Assembly: GCA_964588955.1 (NCBI GenBank)
Contig: CAZPQJ010000001.1
Coordinates: forward strand, 10,155 to 74,154
Source of the DNA: an uncultured Gammaproteobacteria bacterium
GTDB lineage: Bacteria > Patescibacteriota > Patescibacteriia > UBA9934 > CAMTUG01
Direction: 5' to 3'
Length of the DNA stretch: 64,000 nucleotides
The notes beneath the pieces are model-generated. The model was not told where the DNA came from and did no database searches. It worked only from the letters and a program-made list of their open reading frames with translations. The position numbers and the translations under genes are program-made. This document shows positions 3,064 to 37,595 of the stretch, in pieces. Numbering within the stretch: the first letter of the stretch is position 1; each line of letters begins with the position of its first letter.

Positions 3064-3939
3064 ATGGCACGAAACATCATCGAATCCCGTCGCAACGTAA
3101 CTGGTGTCGCGCTGTTCGTCCGTCACGACGGCAGCACCATCGGTCGCATCGCTGACGACCAGTTGTGGGATCTGTTGAGCCGCAACCTGCTCGCCCGCCA
3201 CGACGACGGCATGCGGTCGGTCATCCGCCATATCGGCAACGCCCTTCATCCGGGCGTCCGGCACTGGAAGGACGACGGCAGCGAGGACAACGCACGAATC
3301 GTGGAGTACGGCGAACCGTGGAAGACGCGCAAGGACGACAAGGACGTCTGGACACTCGACGTTCGGGAGGGTGTGACCCTCACCGTCGGGCGCAACCTCG
3401 ATCCGCACTTCCGCGACCGCGGCCTCGCCGTCAACATCACGTTCACCGACACGCAGGCGGCCACGAACTTCGATCGCACGGTTCGGGACTTCTCCGGACG
3501 CATGCACGGTCTCGGCGCCTACGTCGAGATTGCGAGTGTCACCTACGAGTCGGCGTTCTTTGTCCGCTCCACGGTATCCGGCCACTACACGTTCACACAG
3601 GGCACCCCCGAGCGGCTCGGAACCCGCATCAAGGACGTCAACGGTTGGTACCGCATCGCGCCGCTCGAAGGAGAGACACTCGTGGTGTACGACAACAGCC
3701 TCGGGATCGGCAATGGTCCCGAGTACATCGTCCACCCTGAGCGTGCGTTTGCCTCGGTGGGCCGGCTGTCGTTCCGCCTTGTGCAGGGCACCACCGCGCG
3801 GTTCGGTGGCATGGAGAACCACCGCATCTACGTCTACGAGGACTCGCTGCTGCCGATCGCTCCGCAAGAGCGCAACGGCTACAACCCCGACGACTTCGAC
3901 GATACTCGTTCGTCCTTCGGCTACGAGGACGAGTACTAG
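3064..3939 (+). CDS. hypothetical protein, high-GC orphan
   Basis: 291 aa ORF; strongly GC-biased third codon positions on the + strand; the overlapping 302 aa minus-strand ORF is Val/Arg/Ala-rich antisense; no recognised domain. Confidence 0.55.
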   Translation: MARNIIESRRNVTGVALFVRHDGSTIGRIADDQLWDLLSRNLLARHDDGMRSVIRHIGNALHPGVRHWKDDGSEDNARIVEYGEPWKTRKDDKDVWTLDVREGVTLTVGRNLDPHFRDRGLAVNITFTDTQAATNFDRTVRDFSGRMHGLGAYVEIASVTYESAFFVRSTVSGHYTFTQGTPERLGTRIKDVNGWYRIAPLEGETLVVYDNSLGIGNGPEYIVHPERAFASVGRLSFRLVQGTTARFGGMENHRIYVYEDSLLPIAPQERNGYNPDDFDDTRSSFGYEDEY

Positions 3940-4030
3940 CCACCACCCAGCTAGCAGGGCATCACCCATTCTGGTGAACCTGCTGTGCGGGTGGTGTTTC
4001 TGTTTTTAAAAGGATCATCAACATGTAGAA

Positions 4031-4063: not shown

Positions 4064-4138
4064 TGGTGACCCCAGGGAGAGTCGAACTCCCGTTACAGGC
4101 TTGAAAAGCCCGTGTCCTAACCATTAGACGATGGGGCC
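4064..4138 (-). tRNA. tRNA-Glu (anticodon TTC)
   Basis: Reverse complement GGCCCCATCGTCTAATGGTTAGGACACGGGCTTTTCAAGCCTGTAACGGGAGTTCGACTCTCCCTGGGGTCACCA folds as a cloverleaf; anticodon loop TTTTCAA; encoded CCA. Confidence 0.9.
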
Positions 4139-22724: not shown

Positions 22725-22801
22725 TGGTGCGGGCGGAGGGATTTGAACCCCCTACCTCCTGGTTCGAAGCCAGGCGCTCTATCCAAATGAGCTACGCCCG
22801 C
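22725..22801 (-). tRNA. tRNA-Arg (anticodon TCG)
   Basis: Reverse complement GCGGGCGTAGCTCATTTGGATAGAGCGCCTGGCTTCGAACCAGGAGGTAGGGGGTTCAAATCCCTCCGCCCGCACCA; anticodon loop CTTCGAA; encoded CCA. Confidence 0.85.
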
Positions 22802-23004: not shown

Positions 23005-23079
23005 GCGTCGGTAGCTCAGTGGTAGAGCAGGGGCCTCTTAAGCCCAAGGTCGTGGGTCCGATCCCCACCCGACGCACCA
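23005..23079 (+). tRNA. tRNA-Lys (anticodon CTT)
   Basis: GCGTCGGTAGCTCAGTGGTAGAGCAGGGGCCTCTTAAGCCCAAGGTCGTGGGTCCGATCCCCACCCGACGCACCA; anticodon loop CTCTTAA; 27-43 mismatch and unusual T-loop TCCGATC; followed by a hairpin plus T-run terminator at 23081..23112. Confidence 0.7.
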
Positions 23080-23374: not shown

Positions 23375-24199
23375 TTAGGTGTGCCGTTCGTAACGGTATT
23401 TGGCGGAACCTTTGGCCACAAGGGCACAGATGAGAAAACAAATGATGGCAGAAAGGACAATTGTTCCACCGCTGGCAAGATTGAAGTAGAACGAGGCCAT
23501 AAGTCCCACGATGGTTGAGACGATAGAAAAAGCCACCGCCCATTCCCAGGTTGCTCTAAATCCTAATCGGAATTGCATTGCCGCCAGGACAGGGATCACC
23601 ATTAACGCGCCGATTAATAACACCCCCACGACGTTCATGGAAATGGCGATGGTGGCGGCACCGAGGACGGCGAGAATGCGGTTAAGTGCTTTGACCGGTA
23701 AACCGTTGGCTTCGGCTGTGTCTTCATCAAGACTCACGGAGAATAGCGGGCGCCACAGCAATAAGGTAACAAGAAAAGCCACGCTGCCAATTACAGCCAC
23801 GGAAAGAATATCCGCCGTGCTTACCGTAATAATGTTGCCGAACAAATAGTTGACGACGTTTACATTTTTGCCGTGGCTGAGTCCTAGCATCACTACTCCG
23901 GCGGCCAAACCGCCAAACAAAAACAGAGAGACGATCGTGTCTGGGGGGAGCACACGTTTTTCGCGCAAGTGTTCAATGCCAAGCACAGAGGCGATAGAAA
24001 CAACGAGCGCGGTGGGAATAGCGGCGGTACCGGCCAGTAAGCTGGCAGCCACCCCGGCAAGCGACACGTGGGCTAAGGTGTCGGCCATAGAGGAATAGCG
24101 GCGTACCACAAAGAAGATGCCAATGGTGGGCGCCACCACAGCTACGATGAGGCCGACGGCCAGCGCGCGGCGCATGAAATCAAGAGCGAGGAAATCCAT
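23375..24199 (-). CDS. znuB: zinc/manganese ABC transporter permease (ABC-3 family)
   Basis: 274 aa polytopic membrane protein typical of ZnuB/TroC. Confidence 0.8.
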   Translation of the reverse strand: MDFLALDFMRRALAVGLIVAVVAPTIGIFFVVRRYSSMADTLAHVSLAGVAASLLAGTAAIPTALVVSIASVLGIEHLREKRVLPPDTIVSLFLFGGLAAGVVMLGLSHGKNVNVVNYLFGNIITVSTADILSVAVIGSVAFLVTLLLWRPLFSVSLDEDTAEANGLPVKALNRILAVLGAATIAISMNVVGVLLIGALMVIPVLAAMQFRLGFRATWEWAVAFSIVSTIVGLMASFYFNLASGGTIVLSAIICFLICALVAKGSAKYRYERHT

Positions 24200-24200
24200 A

Positions 24201-24926
24201 TTAGGTGTCGTGATGCGCTAAAATTTCTTCCCGATCCGGGTGGAACAAATCACGTAGTTTTTCTTGCCCGATCACACAGGCTTTGTGGCCGTGGCAGACA
24301 AGTTGGTGTTTCAAACAAATGGCCGAGCGGGCTTCTTCGGCTACCGTGTGCACATCGTGGGTCACAAAAATGATGGTAAGTCCGCTTTGGTTCAATTTGC
24401 GTAACAGGGCGTAGAAGGCATCGCGTGAAGTGGGGTCGAGTCCGTCGACTGGCTCATCTAAAAACAAGATTTTGGGTTCACGGGCGATGGCACGGGTTAG
24501 CAAAACTTTTTGGCGTTCGCCCCCGGAGAGACGGCTCATGGGGCGCTTCATGAGATGCTGGACGTTCATTTCTTTCACGACGCGTTTCATCACCCGCTCG
24601 TTTAATGCGCCTGAGCGAATCACCTCCTCTACCGTGGCTGGAAATTGAGCATCAAGATTACCCCCGCGCTGTGCGACGTAACCAAGCTGTTCGCGTACGC
24701 GGCGATCCGTTGGTGCGCCGCCAAGAATTTCAATGGCACCGTGGGTTGGACGCATGAGCCCGAGTAGTAAACGCAACAAGGTTGTCTTTCCGCCGCCGTT
24801 TGGTCCGATCACGCCCACGTAATCGCCGGCGCGCACGTCAAAAGAGAAGTCGTGGATAATATCCTCGCCGTTGCGTTCGAAGGTGAGATCTTCGACATGA
24901 ATGACAATGCGGTTTTTTACCGACAT
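24201..24926 (-). CDS. znuC: zinc ABC transporter ATP-binding protein
   Basis: 241 aa; Walker A GPNGGGKTTLL, ABC signature LSGGERQ, Walker B ILFLDEP. Confidence 0.85.
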   Translation of the reverse strand: MSVKNRIVIHVEDLTFERNGEDIIHDFSFDVRAGDYVGVIGPNGGGKTTLLRLLLGLMRPTHGAIEILGGAPTDRRVREQLGYVAQRGGNLDAQFPATVEEVIRSGALNERVMKRVVKEMNVQHLMKRPMSRLSGGERQKVLLTRAIAREPKILFLDEPVDGLDPTSRDAFYALLRKLNQSGLTIIFVTHDVHTVAEEARSAICLKHQLVCHGHKACVIGQEKLRDLFHPDREEILAHHDT

Positions 24927-25816
24927 AGCATTCCTATACGTAGGTTATTGAGATTTTCCTCCATAACAGTCAGATAGGTTTTGCCTTGCGCCATTTCGTC
25001 TTCGTTTAATCCTTCAAGAGGATTGAAGACAAGTGTTTGGGCGCCAACTTCACGTGCGAGTGCTTCAGCAAGCTTTGGGCTCACTAATGTTTCAAAGTAA
25101 ATATACTTGATGTTGTGTTCTTTGGCTATTTGGGTGATGTCAGCTAAGCGTCCGGCGGAGGGTTCGTCTTCGGGAGAAAGACCGGTGATGGGCACCACGG
25201 TAAACTGGTATTCATTTGCGAGATAGGTAAGGGCTGCGTGCGATGTGACAACATAGCGATTATCGCAGTCCGCAAGACCCGTACGATAATTATTGTCGAG
25301 CGCGGAAAGATGTTGTGCGTAGGATTGCGCTTGTTCGGTAAATGGTGTTGTTGCAACGGGGTTCGCTTTGATGAACGTGTCGCGAATAATAGTGATTTCT
25401 TGTGTGGCAAGAACGGGATCAAGCCAGAAGTGCGGGTCGTCATAGTGGGCGTCGATGCTCTGAGACATATTCACGACGCGCGTGCCCTTTGCGGCAACGT
25501 CTTCAGCGATTCGTTCTGCCCAAGCATCTACACCGTTGCCGTTGTAGAGAAACACATCGGCAGCATAGATTGCCTGAAGTTGTTGTGCAGTCGGTTCGTA
25601 ATCGTGCGGTTCTGTTCCTGCTGGAGTAATGGTGTTCACGTTGACTGCCTCGCCACCGACCTGACGAGCAAACTCGGCTAGTGGATAGAAGCTGGCCACA
25701 ACACGGATCGTTTCTTTTGCTGGCGCGTTGGTGGTTGTCGTGTTTGGTCTCAGCAACAGAATGATCACGACGATGAGGACACCGAGAGCAGCAAGGAGAG
25801 GGAGATGTCTACGCAT
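24917..25816 (-). CDS. znuA: periplasmic zinc-binding protein (ZnuA/TroA family)
   Basis: 299 aa; N-terminal signal/TM; cluster-9 solute-binding protein pattern with His-rich metal site (HDYEP, HFWLDP). Confidence 0.8.
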   Translation of the reverse strand: MRRHLPLLAALGVLIVVIILLLRPNTTTTNAPAKETIRVVASFYPLAEFARQVGGEAVNVNTITPAGTEPHDYEPTAQQLQAIYAADVFLYNGNGVDAWAERIAEDVAAKGTRVVNMSQSIDAHYDDPHFWLDPVLATQEITIIRDTFIKANPVATTPFTEQAQSYAQHLSALDNNYRTGLADCDNRYVVTSHAALTYLANEYQFTVVPITGLSPEDEPSAGRLADITQIAKEHNIKYIYFETLVSPKLAEALAREVGAQTLVFNPLEGLNEDEMAQGKTYLTVMEENLNNLRIGMLCR

Positions 25817-25827
25817 AAGTCAGAATG

Positions 25828-26229
25828 TTACGAGCACTGTGTGCAGCGTCCTTCAAACAAGAGTTGATGGGCGGTGATTTTAATCGGTATCCTTGATGCT
25901 GGTTTTGGATCGGCACAGGGGACGCACTGATAGGTTCCGCAGTTGGTGCACTTTAGATGATCGTGGTGTTTATCGTTGGCGCGTTCGTAGACAGGTTGCT
26001 TGCCATCGTCGAGGGCGATTTGGATGAGCCCGCGTTCTTTTAGGTGGTTGAGATTACGTCGAAGAGTTGTCATGTTGCCCCATTTTGGACCGAGACTGTG
26101 CCAGAGTTGGTTGGCTGTCCAGGCACGGGTCATGGAGAGGAGTTTTTCTAGAAGGGCGTGTTTTTGTTTGGTGGTGCGCTCTGAAATCTCCGTAAAGAGT
26201 TCTTCAATGTCGCAATAGTGTTGTGGCAT
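25828..26229 (-). CDS. zur: Fur-family metalloregulator, probably Zur
   Basis: 133 aa; winged helix plus HHDHLKCTNCG...C..C Fur-family metal-site motifs; first gene of the znu cluster. Confidence 0.7.
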   Translation of the reverse strand: MPQHYCDIEELFTEISERTTKQKHALLEKLLSMTRAWTANQLWHSLGPKWGNMTTLRRNLNHLKERGLIQIALDDGKQPVYERANDKHHDHLKCTNCGTYQCVPCADPKPASRIPIKITAHQLLFEGRCTQCS

Positions 26230-26256
26230 AGGTATTTGATCGACCGCCTACTGTTT

Positions 26257-26282
26257 CTTATTGCATTTCGAAATGCAATAAG
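26257..26282. promoter_or_regulatory. 26-bp perfect palindrome, candidate Zur operator 1
   Basis: CTTATTGCATTTC|GAAATGCAATAAG, 28 bp upstream of the zur start codon and overlapping the likely promoter. Confidence 0.6.
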
Positions 26283-26412
26283 GGCGGTGGGAAAGGTGAG
26301 CCGTTTTTTGTCCTTTTTGGTCAACTTTATCTCTTAAATTAGACAAAAGATGGCAGTTTGTGACGAAAATGATCTGTTTTGGCCCCCAAAGTGGGGACGA
26401 AATAAGTATACC

Positions 26413-26438
26413 CTTATTGCATTCTGAAATGCAATAAG
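26413..26438. promoter_or_regulatory. near-identical second palindrome, candidate Zur operator 2
   Basis: CTTATTGCATTCTGAAATGCAATAAG (one central mismatch), 156 bp from operator 1 and about 220 bp upstream of proS. Confidence 0.5.
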
Positions 26439-26656
26439 GAGGGTGGGGGTATCAGCCGAAGGGTATCAAATCCATACTGTCCGCGACCTATGCTCTTCCG
26501 ACCAACACGTTTCCGACCAACTGCCACAACAATGACAACCCGCCCATCTCCTAAAAGGATCCCGTCCGACCCCCAGCCTCTAAAAGGCCTCGAACCGACC
26601 CAGTCCGCCAAGCCTGCTTAACAGATCAGCCCCAATACGCTAGACTAGCAATCACT

Positions 26657-27940
26657 ATGAAGTACTCACGTTTCTTCGGAAAAACTAACAAGAATGCCCC
26701 ACACGATGCCGATTCGGCTAATGCGCGTTTCCTTATTCAAGGAGGCTTTGTTAATCAGCTTGCCGCTGGTATCTATACGTACCTGCCACTCGGTCTGCGC
26801 GTCATTACCAAAATCAAACAGATTGTTCGTGAAGAAATGAACGCCATTGATAGTAACGAAATTTTGATGCCGGCACTTATTCCAAAAGACCCCTGGATGA
26901 CCACGGGGCGTTGGGACAAGATCGATGTTCTGTTTAAGCTTGAAGGAGCCGGAGAAAAAGAATACGCGCTTGGACCAACCCACGAAGAAGTCGTCACGCC
27001 ACTTGTTCAGCAGTTTGTGAAGTCGTACAAAGATCTCCCCGTTTCGGTTTATCAGATTCAAGACAAGTTTCGCAACGAAGCTCGCGCCAAGTCTGGTTTG
27101 CTCCGTGGCCGCGAGTTTGCCATGAAGGACATGTACAGCTTTCATCGTACGTCGGAAGACTTAGAGGCTTACTACGAACGAGCCCAGGGTGCTTACGCCA
27201 ATGTATTTGCCCGCCTTGGCCTCAATGCTATTTTGACCGAGGCATCTGGCGGCGTGTTCTCGAAGTATTCGCATGAATATCAAGTGGCCACGCCGTATGG
27301 GGAAGATTTGATTTATGTTTGCGATGCCTGCGGATCTTCGCAGAACCGCGAGATCACTGAGGCTAAAGACGGCGACAGCTGCGGCAAGTGCGGAAAAGGA
27401 ACGATCAAAGAAGTCAAAGCGATCGAGGTGGGTAACATCTTCAAACTCTCCACCCGTTTCGCCGATGACTTCGGATTTACGACCACAGATGAAGAAGGGA
27501 AACAAGGGCAAGTATGGATGGGCTGCTACGGCATTGGCATCTCGCGCCTTGCAGGGTCGATTGTGGAGATCCATCACGATGATAATGGAATCATTTGGCC
27601 AAAGAGCGTGGCGCCGTTTAGTGTACAGTTGGTGAGCTTGCGGTCGAAAGATGAAGCGGTGATGCAGCGCATTTTGGAGACGGCGGAATCGTTGCATGCG
27701 GACTTGGAAAAAGCGGGTGTGGAAGTGCTGTGGGACGATCGCGAAGCGGCTTCACCGGGAGAGAAGTTCGCCGACGCGGATTTAATCGGTATTCCTCTGC
27801 GCATTGTGGTTTCAGAAAAAACCTTGAAAGAAGAGGCGGTGGAATGGAAAGAACGTCATGTGGCAGATTCGATGCTGGTTAAGCTCGACGACGCCATGGA
27901 AAAAATCTTGAGCTTCGTTAACGAACCCGCCGCGGAATAA
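26657..27940 (+). CDS. proS: prolyl-tRNA synthetase (short form without editing domain, with CxxC...CxxC insertion)
   Basis: 427 aa; class II aaRS motifs, ProRS-type catalytic core and C-terminal anticodon-binding domain; CDACG...CGKCGKG zinc-ribbon-like insert. Confidence 0.9.
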   Translation: MKYSRFFGKTNKNAPHDADSANARFLIQGGFVNQLAAGIYTYLPLGLRVITKIKQIVREEMNAIDSNEILMPALIPKDPWMTTGRWDKIDVLFKLEGAGEKEYALGPTHEEVVTPLVQQFVKSYKDLPVSVYQIQDKFRNEARAKSGLLRGREFAMKDMYSFHRTSEDLEAYYERAQGAYANVFARLGLNAILTEASGGVFSKYSHEYQVATPYGEDLIYVCDACGSSQNREITEAKDGDSCGKCGKGTIKEVKAIEVGNIFKLSTRFADDFGFTTTDEEGKQGQVWMGCYGIGISRLAGSIVEIHHDDNGIIWPKSVAPFSVQLVSLRSKDEAVMQRILETAESLHADLEKAGVEVLWDDREAASPGEKFADADLIGIPLRIVVSEKTLKEEAVEWKERHVADSMLVKLDDAMEKILSFVNEPAAE

Positions 27941-27953
27941 ATTGTCGTGTATA

Positions 27954-27980
27954 GGCGGGGCTACCACGCCCCGCTTTTTT
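27954..27980. terminator. GC-rich hairpin plus T6 terminator (member of a dispersed hairpin family)
   Basis: GGCGGGGC-TACCAC-GCCCCGC followed by TTTTTT, 14 nt after the proS stop. Confidence 0.7.
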
Positions 27981-27988
27981 GTATTAGG

Positions 27989-29170
27989 ATGGACCCGCTC
28001 TCTATCGATCGCCCAAGCCCGCCGCCGCCATGTTGGCCTACGCGGATCACCTTGATCGTGCCAGAGCTGGAACCCACCATGCCCCGTCCTGAAAACACCC
28101 GTGATGCCCTGGTTGCCCTTCACCAGATCGGCGACGACGTTCTGGCCCGCGAGCTGCCGACCCGCTCCGACCAGCTCCGGCGCTTCCAGTCCAACCCCGA
28201 CGCCTGTCTGAGTGATCTGTGTCGCGGGGTTGAGTGGATCAACGGCTCCATCCAGGATCTTATGGTCACTCCCGACGGCAGGCCGGCCTGGATCGGAAAG
28301 CACCACGACCTCCTGGTTCTGATGGTCGACGGCAAGCCGTGGCCGCTCAGCTTCGATACCGGCGTAAGTCCCACGAGTAGGACTGATGCCGGTATCGTCT
28401 CAGCTGAACTGTTCGGCTTCACCAGCGTTGCTCCTGTTGGTGAACCGATTGTCCTTCTGCGTCACGAAAGTCGTGGCGCTGTGATCTACATTGGCAACAT
28501 GCCGGTGTGGGATGGAAATCTTCACAATGTCGGTGTTCGGATTCTTCCGCACACCCCCGCTCCGACGCTTGTCATTTGGGGGTTGAAGGACGCTGAAGGT
28601 GGGATTGCTGCCCATGCCGAGGCTTTTCTCTGGAAGCCTGTCGCACTCGGTCAACTCGGCTCCTGGTCGAGCGAGATCCTTTCCTGCTTCGGCCTGAGCG
28701 CGGATGAACTGTTCGTCAAGTTCGAACGCCACCAAGGCCTCGGACCGAAGAACGCGAGCAAGCCCCGCGGCCTCCACTCCCTGCGTTTCGGTCGCGAAGT
28801 ACCCATCGATGCAGACGTCCTCGACATCGTGACGGCGAGGGACGGGAGTATGCGTATTCTTGCGCAGAGCCGTGAGTGTGTTCTGGGGATGTACAATTTC
28901 TTTGTGAGTGATGATGGACCCCAAGTGCGGTTCATTGACGATGTTCGGATCCCCGCGCCGTATCGTGGCGGCTACAAGCATATCGATCGATACCCGGCCT
29001 ACAAAGTCGATCTGCGCCATCAGCAGGTAGCCTGGGTCGTCGGACGCAACGTCGTCCAGCCGGCCATGAACCAGGTGACGGATCTGTTCGAACATCCCAT
29101 GCATGGCTGGTGCTACTGGGGGTCGGTTCGACAGCAACTCTTCCTCATGAAAGTCGACTTCGACGAATAA
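27989..29170 (+). CDS. hypothetical protein, high-GC orphan
   Basis: About 393 aa with GC-rich third positions; start uncertain (27989 or 28079); no recognisable motif. Confidence 0.45.
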   Translation: MDPLSIDRPSPPPPCWPTRITLIVPELEPTMPRPENTRDALVALHQIGDDVLARELPTRSDQLRRFQSNPDACLSDLCRGVEWINGSIQDLMVTPDGRPAWIGKHHDLLVLMVDGKPWPLSFDTGVSPTSRTDAGIVSAELFGFTSVAPVGEPIVLLRHESRGAVIYIGNMPVWDGNLHNVGVRILPHTPAPTLVIWGLKDAEGGIAAHAEAFLWKPVALGQLGSWSSEILSCFGLSADELFVKFERHQGLGPKNASKPRGLHSLRFGREVPIDADVLDIVTARDGSMRILAQSRECVLGMYNFFVSDDGPQVRFIDDVRIPAPYRGGYKHIDRYPAYKVDLRHQQVAWVVGRNVVQPAMNQVTDLFEHPMHGWCYWGSVRQQLFLMKVDFDE

Positions 29171-36767: not shown

Positions 36768-37595
36768 TCATTCCGGTTTCTGAAGACAGTAGACTTCGGT
36801 TGTCCTACTCCGCCGAGGGTCAGCACGTTCGACTGTGGCCAGCTTGACGGGGTCACCCATTGCTTGAGCCTGAGTGATCATTGCATCGTACATTGCAACA
36901 TCAAAGAAGACATGATCTCCCAGATCCACAAATCCAATTTCTGCCGCAGGATTGTATTTGAACAAGCCCATGAGGATCATCATCCCGCCCGGACGCAGAC
37001 AGTCGGCGAAGGCGTGCAAATCGCGTGACGTTGCGTAGCCGTTAAGACAGAGAACCATGTCGACAGGATGACGGTCATTCCTTTTGAGTAGATCCAAAGC
37101 CTGTCGATGGCTCCCTACCGACATCCCCACATTGGCGCGGTTGAGCCGAAGCATGCGCGCTTGGGTAACTCCCATAGCTACCTGTGACACGTCGTAGGCG
37201 ATGAAGCCTGTCTTGTTAAATTCGCTGGCCAAGTATCCGAGGGGGAGTCCGGTGCCGCAGGCGGCATCGAGCACCAAGCGCGGATGGTGGTGGCGGATTT
37301 TAGCCGCGCAATAGGCGATGAATTCGGCCGTGCGACGGCGTGTCCTCGAGTGCGCATGCACGAGATCGTTTTTTGCTCCAACATGGTCGTAGATGGCCGC
37401 GAGGACTTTTTCAGGATTGGGCATGAGCGGTGCCAATGCAAGGAGCTCATGGGTTTCTCTGAACACCTCGGCCGGATCGCACGTATCCGTATTGAGGTTG
37501 CCGAATAGCCAGCGCCATTGGGCCATGATGTAGCGGGTGATTGCCGTCACTTCGTTGTGATTAAACAGAGGGGTTGTGTTCGACACGGTGTTCAC
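36768..37595 (-). CDS. class I SAM-dependent methyltransferase
   Basis: 275 aa; motif I LDAACGTGLP and Rossmann-fold pattern. Confidence 0.65.
   Translation of the reverse strand: MNTVSNTTPLFNHNEVTAITRYIMAQWRWLFGNLNTDTCDPAEVFRETHELLALAPLMPNPEKVLAAIYDHVGAKNDLVHAHSRTRRRTAEFIAYCAAKIRHHHPRLVLDAACGTGLPLGYLASEFNKTGFIAYDVSQVAMGVTQARMLRLNRANVGMSVGSHRQALDLLKRNDRHPVDMVLCLNGYATSRDLHAFADCLRPGGMMILMGLFKYNPAAEIGFVDLGDHVFFDVAMYDAMITQAQAMGDPVKLATVERADPRRSRTTEVYCLQKPE

Follow-up and report, generated by a model that had tools for sequence, protein, structure and literature searches.

The zur-znuACB locus and its regulator

The window (the whole stretch of DNA analysed here, 64 kb in length) contains on its minus strand a four-gene operon that starts with the gene for a Fur-family regulator and continues with the genes of a zinc-type ABC importer; the ProRS gene, proS, is transcribed divergently. 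Gene calls agree with this zur-znuA-znuC-znuB and proS layout, which had been proposed in an earlier reading of the DNA alone (hereafter, the sequence-only reading). The genes are:

23375..24199, minus strand, ABC-3 permease (ZnuB/AztB-like), from gene call and family match
24201..24926, minus strand, ABC ATPase (ZnuC-like), from gene call and family match
24917..25816, minus strand, zinc ABC substrate-binding protein (ZnuA/AdcA/YcdH type; PF01297, 4e-78)
25828..26229, minus strand, Fur-family regulator (Zur-like), 133 aa, first gene of the operon (PF01475, E=1.9e-11)
26657..27940, plus strand, ProRS (proS), divergent, from gene call

The substrate-binding protein has its best PDB matches in Bacillus subtilis YcdH (2o1e, 1e-57) and pneumococcal AdcA (1e-56), whereas matches to Mn-binding proteins are much weaker (1e-24 to 1e-28). 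Its EPH, DPHFW, TSHAA and NPLE motifs align with those of the zinc proteins, with the His3Glu (His/His/His/Glu) ligand pattern.

The regulator has a Fur domain with the HHDH motif and the structural CxxC...CxxC pairs (H88, H89, D90, H91, C94, C97, C129 and C132 are invariant), and its best solved relative is FurB/Zur of Mycobacterium tuberculosis (2o03). It matches neither a curated Zur model nor the known sensing ligands: no NCBIfam equivalog was reached at cut-off, the best being PerR and Fur at ∼ 33 bits, and two of the four site-2 ligands of FurB are replaced (D62 and C76 of the M. tuberculosis protein align with Q70 and A84), the regulator clade having invariant H4, C6, C102 and C105 instead. 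For these reasons we infer a role as zinc sensor, and the identity of the protein as a divergent Zur, from its genomic context, i.e. its encoding in the same operon as a zinc-type importer. The clade comprises three 50%-identity clusters (E<=1e-30) among 1.84 billion protein representatives.

The regulator is a member of a small Fur subfamily of Patescibacteria (P0012–P0022; source names Candidatus Uhrbacteria and Patescibacteria group) whose members share the motif H-x-C-x-[IV]-[ED]-E at the N-terminus. In addition, their first CxxC is followed by an extra C-x-P-C, and their C-terminal domain is shortened. The layout of metal sites may thus be different in this subfamily.

The CxxC...CxxC insert that the sequence-only reading had seen in ProRS is real (CxxC-N16-CxxC) and conserved in the orthologues. 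It probably forms a zinc ribbon, and the gene of this enzyme is next to that of a putative zinc regulator. At residues 222–245 of ProRS (27320–27391), CDACGSSQNREITEAKDGDSCGKC replaces the usual editing insertion and is kept in the related loci L007, L009 and L013. Directly after proS, a 407-aa ORF (27947–29170, plus strand) has no Pfam match; the equivalent place in L001 is taken by a 363-aa gene without a recorded Pfam hit. Two tRNA genes (22728–22801, minus strand, and 23005–23076, plus strand) follow closely on the znuB end of the operon, and a third is found at 4067–4138 (minus strand).

Two palindromic boxes between zur and proS

The intergenic region contains two related palindromes, designated box P and box D for proximal and distal with respect to zur, and the following further features:

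26257..26282, no strand, proximal candidate operator (box P), CTTATTGCATTTCGAAATGCAATAAG, a perfect 13+13 palindrome of 26 bp
26283..26412, no strand, inter-box segment S, AT-rich and length-conserved, with A/T tracts approximately every 10.5 bp
26286..26291, minus strand, CCCACC, 4 nt upstream of box P in the zur orientation, invariant in proS-linked lineages
26391..26397, minus strand, TCCCCAC, 17–22 nt after box D and approximately at the predicted transcript start, invariant in the alignment of proS-linked lineages
26405..26434, minus strand, predicted promoter P1 facing zur, read from the sequence: -35 TTGCAT (26429–26434), 18-nt spacer, -10 TATACT (26405–26410)
26413..26438, no strand, distal candidate operator (box D), CTTATTGCATTCTGAAATGCAATAAG, covering the -35 and spacer of P1
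26618..26646, plus strand, predicted proS promoter, TTAACA-17-TAGACT, conserved

Box P is indeed a perfect 26-bp palindrome, as claimed in the sequence-only reading, although the letters printed there were those of its 24-nt core. Box D, described as a one-mismatch copy, differs from box P by two adjacent central mismatches (TC→CT). The spacing of 156 bp from start to start is exact and box D is separated from the proS ATG (26657) by 218 nt, in agreement with the earlier value of ∼ 220, whereas there are 27 nt, and not 28, between box P and the zur ATG (A at 26229, minus strand). The direct repeat formed by the boxes runs on into a G-rich tail, AAGG[G/A][C/G]GGTGGG, for a total of 35 nt. Both boxes are AT-rich dyads of the kind (∼ 15–25 bp) expected of Fur-family (Zur-type) operators.

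In 100 dinucleotide shuffles, the expected number of chance matches to the box at up to three mismatches was 0.00, and the 64 kb window contains no further copy beyond P and D. A weak third match to the arms at 36878–36901 (three mismatches) was dismissed because it is located inside an ORF and, by our own estimate, about one such match is expected in the window by chance. A small ORF that runs through box P (26248–26346, minus strand) was also rejected, its frame being lost beyond close relatives. Outside box P, the stem can be extended (ACCGCC...GGCGGT) in the window and L004, but this extension is missing in L006 and L007.

Conservation of the box pair in related lineages

Related loci were gathered by exact and homologous protein look-ups and by one metagenome scan that used as the query a degenerate DNA pattern encoding HYCDIEEL, a peptide specific to the clade. 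The resulting set includes 14 contigs from nine lineages, with regulators 45–95% identical to that of the window; L012–L014 come from groundwater (0.2 µm). All nine lineages with an orthologous regulator have two boxes upstream of the Fur-family-znu(A)CB genes. The consensus consists of the arms TTATTGCA-N8-TGCAATAA (N7 in L012, L013 and L015), with the centre free to vary. Box P ends 17–28 nt before the zur ATG in all nine lineages, and the start-to-start distance between the boxes is 155–158 bp in six of them, 168 bp in L012 and L015, and 134 bp in L013.

The only lineage with altered arms, L004 (TTATTGTC/GACAATAA), is also the only one with an altered recognition helix (KTLTRNL vs. TTLRRNL), which is one hint of putative protein–DNA co-variation. 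L006 and L007 have intact outer arms but degenerate inner ones. In these two lineages (L006, 1330–1353 and 1485–1508; L007, 5690–5713 and 5847–5870), the degenerate inner arms and centres mirror each other and the -10 beside box D is missing; they may represent a decaying or re-wired form of the switch.

The sequence-only reading had suggested that the motif might define the Zur regulon of this lineage. Within the sequence covered, no such regulon was found: neither the rest of the 64 kb window nor the related loci (∼ 150 kb of related sequence) had an additional copy, before other zinc-starvation genes or elsewhere. The absence of extra sites does not refute the operator reading because conservation at orthologous loci is independent evidence.

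Two more distant groups, P0010 (L016/L017) and P0011 (L018), were rejected as orthologues and treated as outgroups, with boxes of other sequence. A textbook Fur box, GATAATGATAATGATTATC, is found at the more distant Fur-family gene of L016/L017. Upstream of the outgroup Fur-family gene of L018 (31% identity) lie TGCAAAGAGATTGCA and TTGCAAACACTTTGCG (3540–3605), and the TGCAA/TTGCA dyad there recalls the Zur-box prediction for Desulfovibrio.

Boxes D and P of the same genome are more alike than equivalent boxes of different genomes. Thus, box D is the reverse complement of box P at 26/26 positions in L005, 25/25 in L012 and 25/26 in L006, and is identical to it in direct orientation at 26/26 positions in L003. 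The orientation of this similarity is mixed, inverted in L005, L006 and L012 and direct in L003 and L004, and the central bases of the two boxes differ in five of the nine lineages (the window, L003, L004, L013 and L015). Both observations argue for homogenisation rather than selection for pairing or for recombinase crossover sites. We read the concerted change of the two boxes as the work of selection by a single dimeric protein, to which occasional homogenisation between the near-identical palindromes, through gene conversion or template switching, has been added.

Length and A-tract phasing of the inter-box spacer

The gap between the boxes is 131–134 nt in six lineages despite 55–69% spacer identity (43–69% across the compared lineages). 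In the window, the 10–11 bp periodicity of AA/TT in the spacer (26282–26413) is the strongest anywhere, with a power of 3.37; over 12,774 scanning windows, the median was 0.20 and the 99th percentile 1.08. The 12 best scanning windows all start at 26251–26311, and the best one outside the inter-box region scores 2.1 (start 63866). Power summed over the nine lineages peaks at 10.5 bp, where it reaches 13.06 vs. 2.2±0.5 in shuffles (0/1000). The A/T tracts are centred near positions 13, 24, 34, 45, 55, 66, 76, 86, 96 and 105 after box D, and the phase of AA/TT relative to box D agrees in eight lineages (R=0.89, Rayleigh p∼0.002). The fraction of dinucleotide shuffles that reached the observed power in individual lineages was as follows:

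Window, L003 and L005: 0/2000 each
L006: 0.0035
L012 and L013: about 0.035, marginal
L004: 0.09
L007: 0.14
L015: 0.57

Periodicity of the kind that marks bent DNA is therefore present in the window, L003, L005 and L006 (p<=0.004) and is weak or absent in L004, L007 and L015. A tandem-repeat origin of the periodicity was ruled out, as no tandem repeat was found. This pattern suggests that the spacer is intrinsically curved duplex DNA; the signal is strong in the species of the window and its nearer relatives and weaker further out.

The boxes thus lie 100–200 bp apart (134, 155–158 or 168 bp) around the predicted promoter and transcript start. At 10.5 bp per turn, these distances correspond to 12.8, 14.8–15.0 and 16.0 turns. 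Such values are compatible with both boxes facing one side of the helix, but with only three spacing classes their closeness to whole turns (within 0.25 turn) does not reach statistical significance.

Predicted promoters and the gene probably served by the boxes

The inferred start of P1 is near 26398, which gives a leader of ∼ 170 nt. In the window this promoter scores 8/12, under the threshold of the promoter scan. In both L012 and L015, the region has a single sigma-70-like promoter site, TTGCAA-17-TATAAT (10/12), whose -35 is the right arm of box D. A -10 at the position of P1 reads TATAAT in L005, TATACT in L004 and TACACT in L003 and is absent in L006, L007 and L013; in the window, L003, L004 and L005, the -35 is placed within box D by reading alone. 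Box D thus shows the overlap with a predicted core promoter that is expected of a Zur-type operator. No recognisable promoter is overlapped by box P.

The proS promoter ends 10 nt before the proS ATG and is separated from box D by ∼ 180 bp. In L012/L014 and L015, proS is replaced upstream by a co-directional sulfatase gene with its own terminator, and box D is kept. Control of proS through the distal box, raised in the sequence-only reading, is not supported. Because of the overlap with the -35 of P1, the separate proS promoter and the sulfatase-linked lineages, box D was assigned to the zur operon.

Several other features of the region deserve a record. The -10 of proS, ending 10 nt before the ATG and kept in L004–L007, implies a nearly leaderless mRNA. 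No Shine–Dalgarno sequence was found before zur, znuA or proS (26230–26256, 25817–25836 and 26618–26659), and the start context of zur, CCTATG, is invariant in the proS-linked lineages. An extra CCCACC precedes box D at 26442–26447 (minus strand), likewise in L003 and L013. Neither TCCCCAC nor CCCACC is enriched across the whole window, so they do not represent a general promoter motif. Between box D and the proS promoter, a C-rich stretch of the plus strand (26490–26610) holds repeated short motifs: TTCCGACCAAC occurs twice, 14 bp apart (26497–26507 and 26511–26521), along with more copies of CCGACC, and CTAAAAGG occurs twice, at ∼ 26551 and ∼ 26580. GGTCGG and CCTTTTAGAG-like motifs are found at the same place in L004–L007. 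Another regulator of proS or zur may bind to these repeats. A leader of known type before proS, such as a T-box, was ruled out: no Rfam family matched the proS/zur intergenic region at E<=1, the hits at 22.5–27 kb lying elsewhere.

Alternative explanations

The same boxes could in principle act as nucleic-acid structure, forming in the transcript either a long-range stem between D and P or two local hairpins (a leader structure, an RNase III site or an attenuator). The RNAalifold consensus picks the D:P pairing, for which 95.3% of cells are paired and 12 of the 24 pairs are doubly changed (self-hairpins, 89.4%), the predicted leader folds with z=-3.7, and box D was scored as terminator-like on the minus strand. 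However, covarying dyad halves are equally predicted by a dimeric repressor, and the orientation of D/P similarity is mixed among lineages. Moreover, transcripts from the only credible promoter would include box P but start downstream of box D. The region has no Rfam match, and an A/T periodicity of 10.5 bp points to double-stranded DNA rather than RNA. We consider such a role of the boxes improbable. An alternative that places D and P at the ends of an invertible promoter, which a site-specific recombinase would flip so as to make zinc uptake phase-variable, draws on the inverton-like geometry (inverted repeats of 24–26 bp around 111–145 bp that carry the -10), on the exact or near reverse complementarity of the boxes in L005, L012 and L006, and on the curved spacer, which would aid synapsis. 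Yet the segment has one orientation in 14/14 contigs of the nine lineages, the central bases, where crossover would take place, differ between D and P in five of the nine lineages, the window included, and the A-tract register is fixed relative to box D. There is also no adjacent recombinase gene, the only candidate being an IS-type rve integrase ∼ 4 kb off in L007/L008. Taken together, these data make an invertible promoter very improbable.

It is also conceivable that the boxes bind a different regulator or are the terminal inverted repeats of a small mobile-element remnant, with no relation to zinc. After all, the Fur-family protein is only a putative binder, the motif is unlike the published Zur boxes, and no regulon was found in the window and related loci. 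Against this stand the fixed position of the pair relative to the regulator gene down to 45% protein identity, its staying with the regulator when the upstream neighbour changes, the lack of other copies in the ∼ 150 kb of related sequence, and the coincidence of the arm change in L004 with the change in the recognition helix. We regard an unrelated regulator or remnant as unlikely. Finally, the operator reading could be retained with the true promoter located at box P, in which case the spacer would be upstream curved DNA.

Comparison with known systems

In classic Zur promoters, the core promoter itself is covered by a single box or by two boxes side by side. Predicted Zur boxes of autoregulated zur-znuABC operons have been described in Geobacter sulfurreducens and in Desulfovibrio, the latter being ATGCAACnnnGTTGCAT (PMC545781). 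As in those cases, an AT-rich dyad precedes a Fur-family gene clustered with znuABC, and the TGCAA/TTGCA half-site core is common to the Desulfovibrio box and those described here. In contrast, the arms here are reversed in arrangement (TTATTGCA...TGCAATAA), the core is longer (23–24 bp), and there are always two copies, 134–168 bp apart. B. subtilis yciC and Streptomyces coelicolor znuA have two Zur boxes on the core promoter (-35 and -10) that are thought to be independent (PMC6103462). The znu operon studied here likewise has two operator candidates, one of them over the -35, and its downstream box could, as there, be a back-up or a roadblock; unlike in those promoters, the second box is ∼ 140 nt downstream, with conserved spacing and phased A-tracts in between.

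Helicobacter pylori Fur has been shown by AFM and footprinting to compact the arsR promoter through three operators bound by Fur tetramers in response to iron (PMC5007355). Both systems have a Fur-family repressor and several operators around the transcript start, with metal-dependent looping or wrapping in the H. pylori case; here there are two candidate operators, the metal is presumed to be zinc, the evidence is from sequence, and intrinsic curvature is a candidate helper. Because Fur-family compaction of DNA through multiple operators has been reported (PMC5007355), a loop at the znu promoter would not be without precedent.

Other Patescibacteria provide a nearer comparison. Sister zur-znuACB operons (L019 and L022) encode a regulator of the same Fur subfamily (N-terminal HxC, CxPC) and have palindromes at the promoter, but their intergenic regions are short (∼ 85 bp) and lack a distant second box, the boxes being within or beside strong promoters, TTGACA-N17-(T/C)A(A/T)AAT. 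In L019, a TTGACA...TAAAAT promoter carries two copies of the palindrome TTAGACTGTAGTCTAA in tandem, 18 bp apart (3950–4000); in L022, the spacer of TTGACA-17-CATAAT contains one copy of GCAAATGAATTTGC (3925–3960). By having other palindromes on their promoters, these operons show the general logic of the operator reading; judging from the sequences compared, operator-like boxes turn over quickly among Patescibacteria lineages.

In the gal operon of Escherichia coli, the GalR–HU repressosome joins the operators OE and OI, ∼ 113 bp apart, with HU at the apex. The likeness is that two dyad operators lie around a promoter at a distance below the persistence length of DNA, so that joining them requires the DNA to bend. 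The repressor family is different, and the bend comes from HU there and would come from phased A-tracts here. To our knowledge, the combination of distant paired operators, a length-conserved spacer and phased A-tracts is undescribed for Zur.

Proposed mechanism and implications

We infer that the protein that binds the boxes is the Fur-family regulator and that its binding is zinc-dependent. The palindromes are probably operators of this adjacent, divergent Zur repressor, which would autoregulate zur-znuACB through them, possibly with looping; this reading of an autoregulated Zur-like operator is well supported because the pair is conserved, a predicted promoter is overlapped and the substrate-binding protein is of the zinc type. 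The designation of the site as a classic autoregulated Zur operator holds in part: lineage-specific paired candidate operators are present at nine orthologous operons, with overlap of the -35 and a zinc-type transporter, but the arrangement is not classic, the boxes being 134–168 bp apart around an A-tract-phased segment.

In the proposed autoregulatory mechanism, zinc-bound repressor would occupy box D, covering the -35 and spacer of P1, together with box P, which is part of the leader and 27 nt away from the start codon. The two occupied operators could then interact across the phased spacer of ∼ 130 bp, producing a small loop or wrap that would enclose the -10 and the transcript start, and the intrinsic curvature would pay part of the cost of bending at this sub-persistence-length distance. 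A loop or wrap is suggested by the phased A-tracts and the conserved spacing of ∼ 13, 15 and 16 turns, and an interaction of the two operators as a looped or wrapped complex is a serious possibility that we would not yet call likely. The more specific proposal, that a Zur-type repressor of a Patescibacteria-like bacterium with an ultra-small genome closes a micro-loop or wrap of 13–16 turns on its own zinc importer and that the phased A-tracts evolved to pre-bend the DNA, is a tentative one.

The motif is new, yet it is one more lineage-specific Zur-type box, and the architecture is a variation on the known logic of repression loops. For a metal regulator of a barely studied, uncultured lineage, the box pair provides an operator motif and a promoter architecture that can be tested. 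If the proposed mechanism is true, this would be the first looping Zur, with intrinsic curvature standing in for an architectural protein. The presumably pre-bent cassette of 130 bp is small enough to be synthesised. If the loop is real, a zinc sensor would join H. pylori Fur, the case shown so far, as an example of short-range looping by the Fur family, and the znu promoter would offer a natural case of sequence-encoded curvature tuned to an operator pair.
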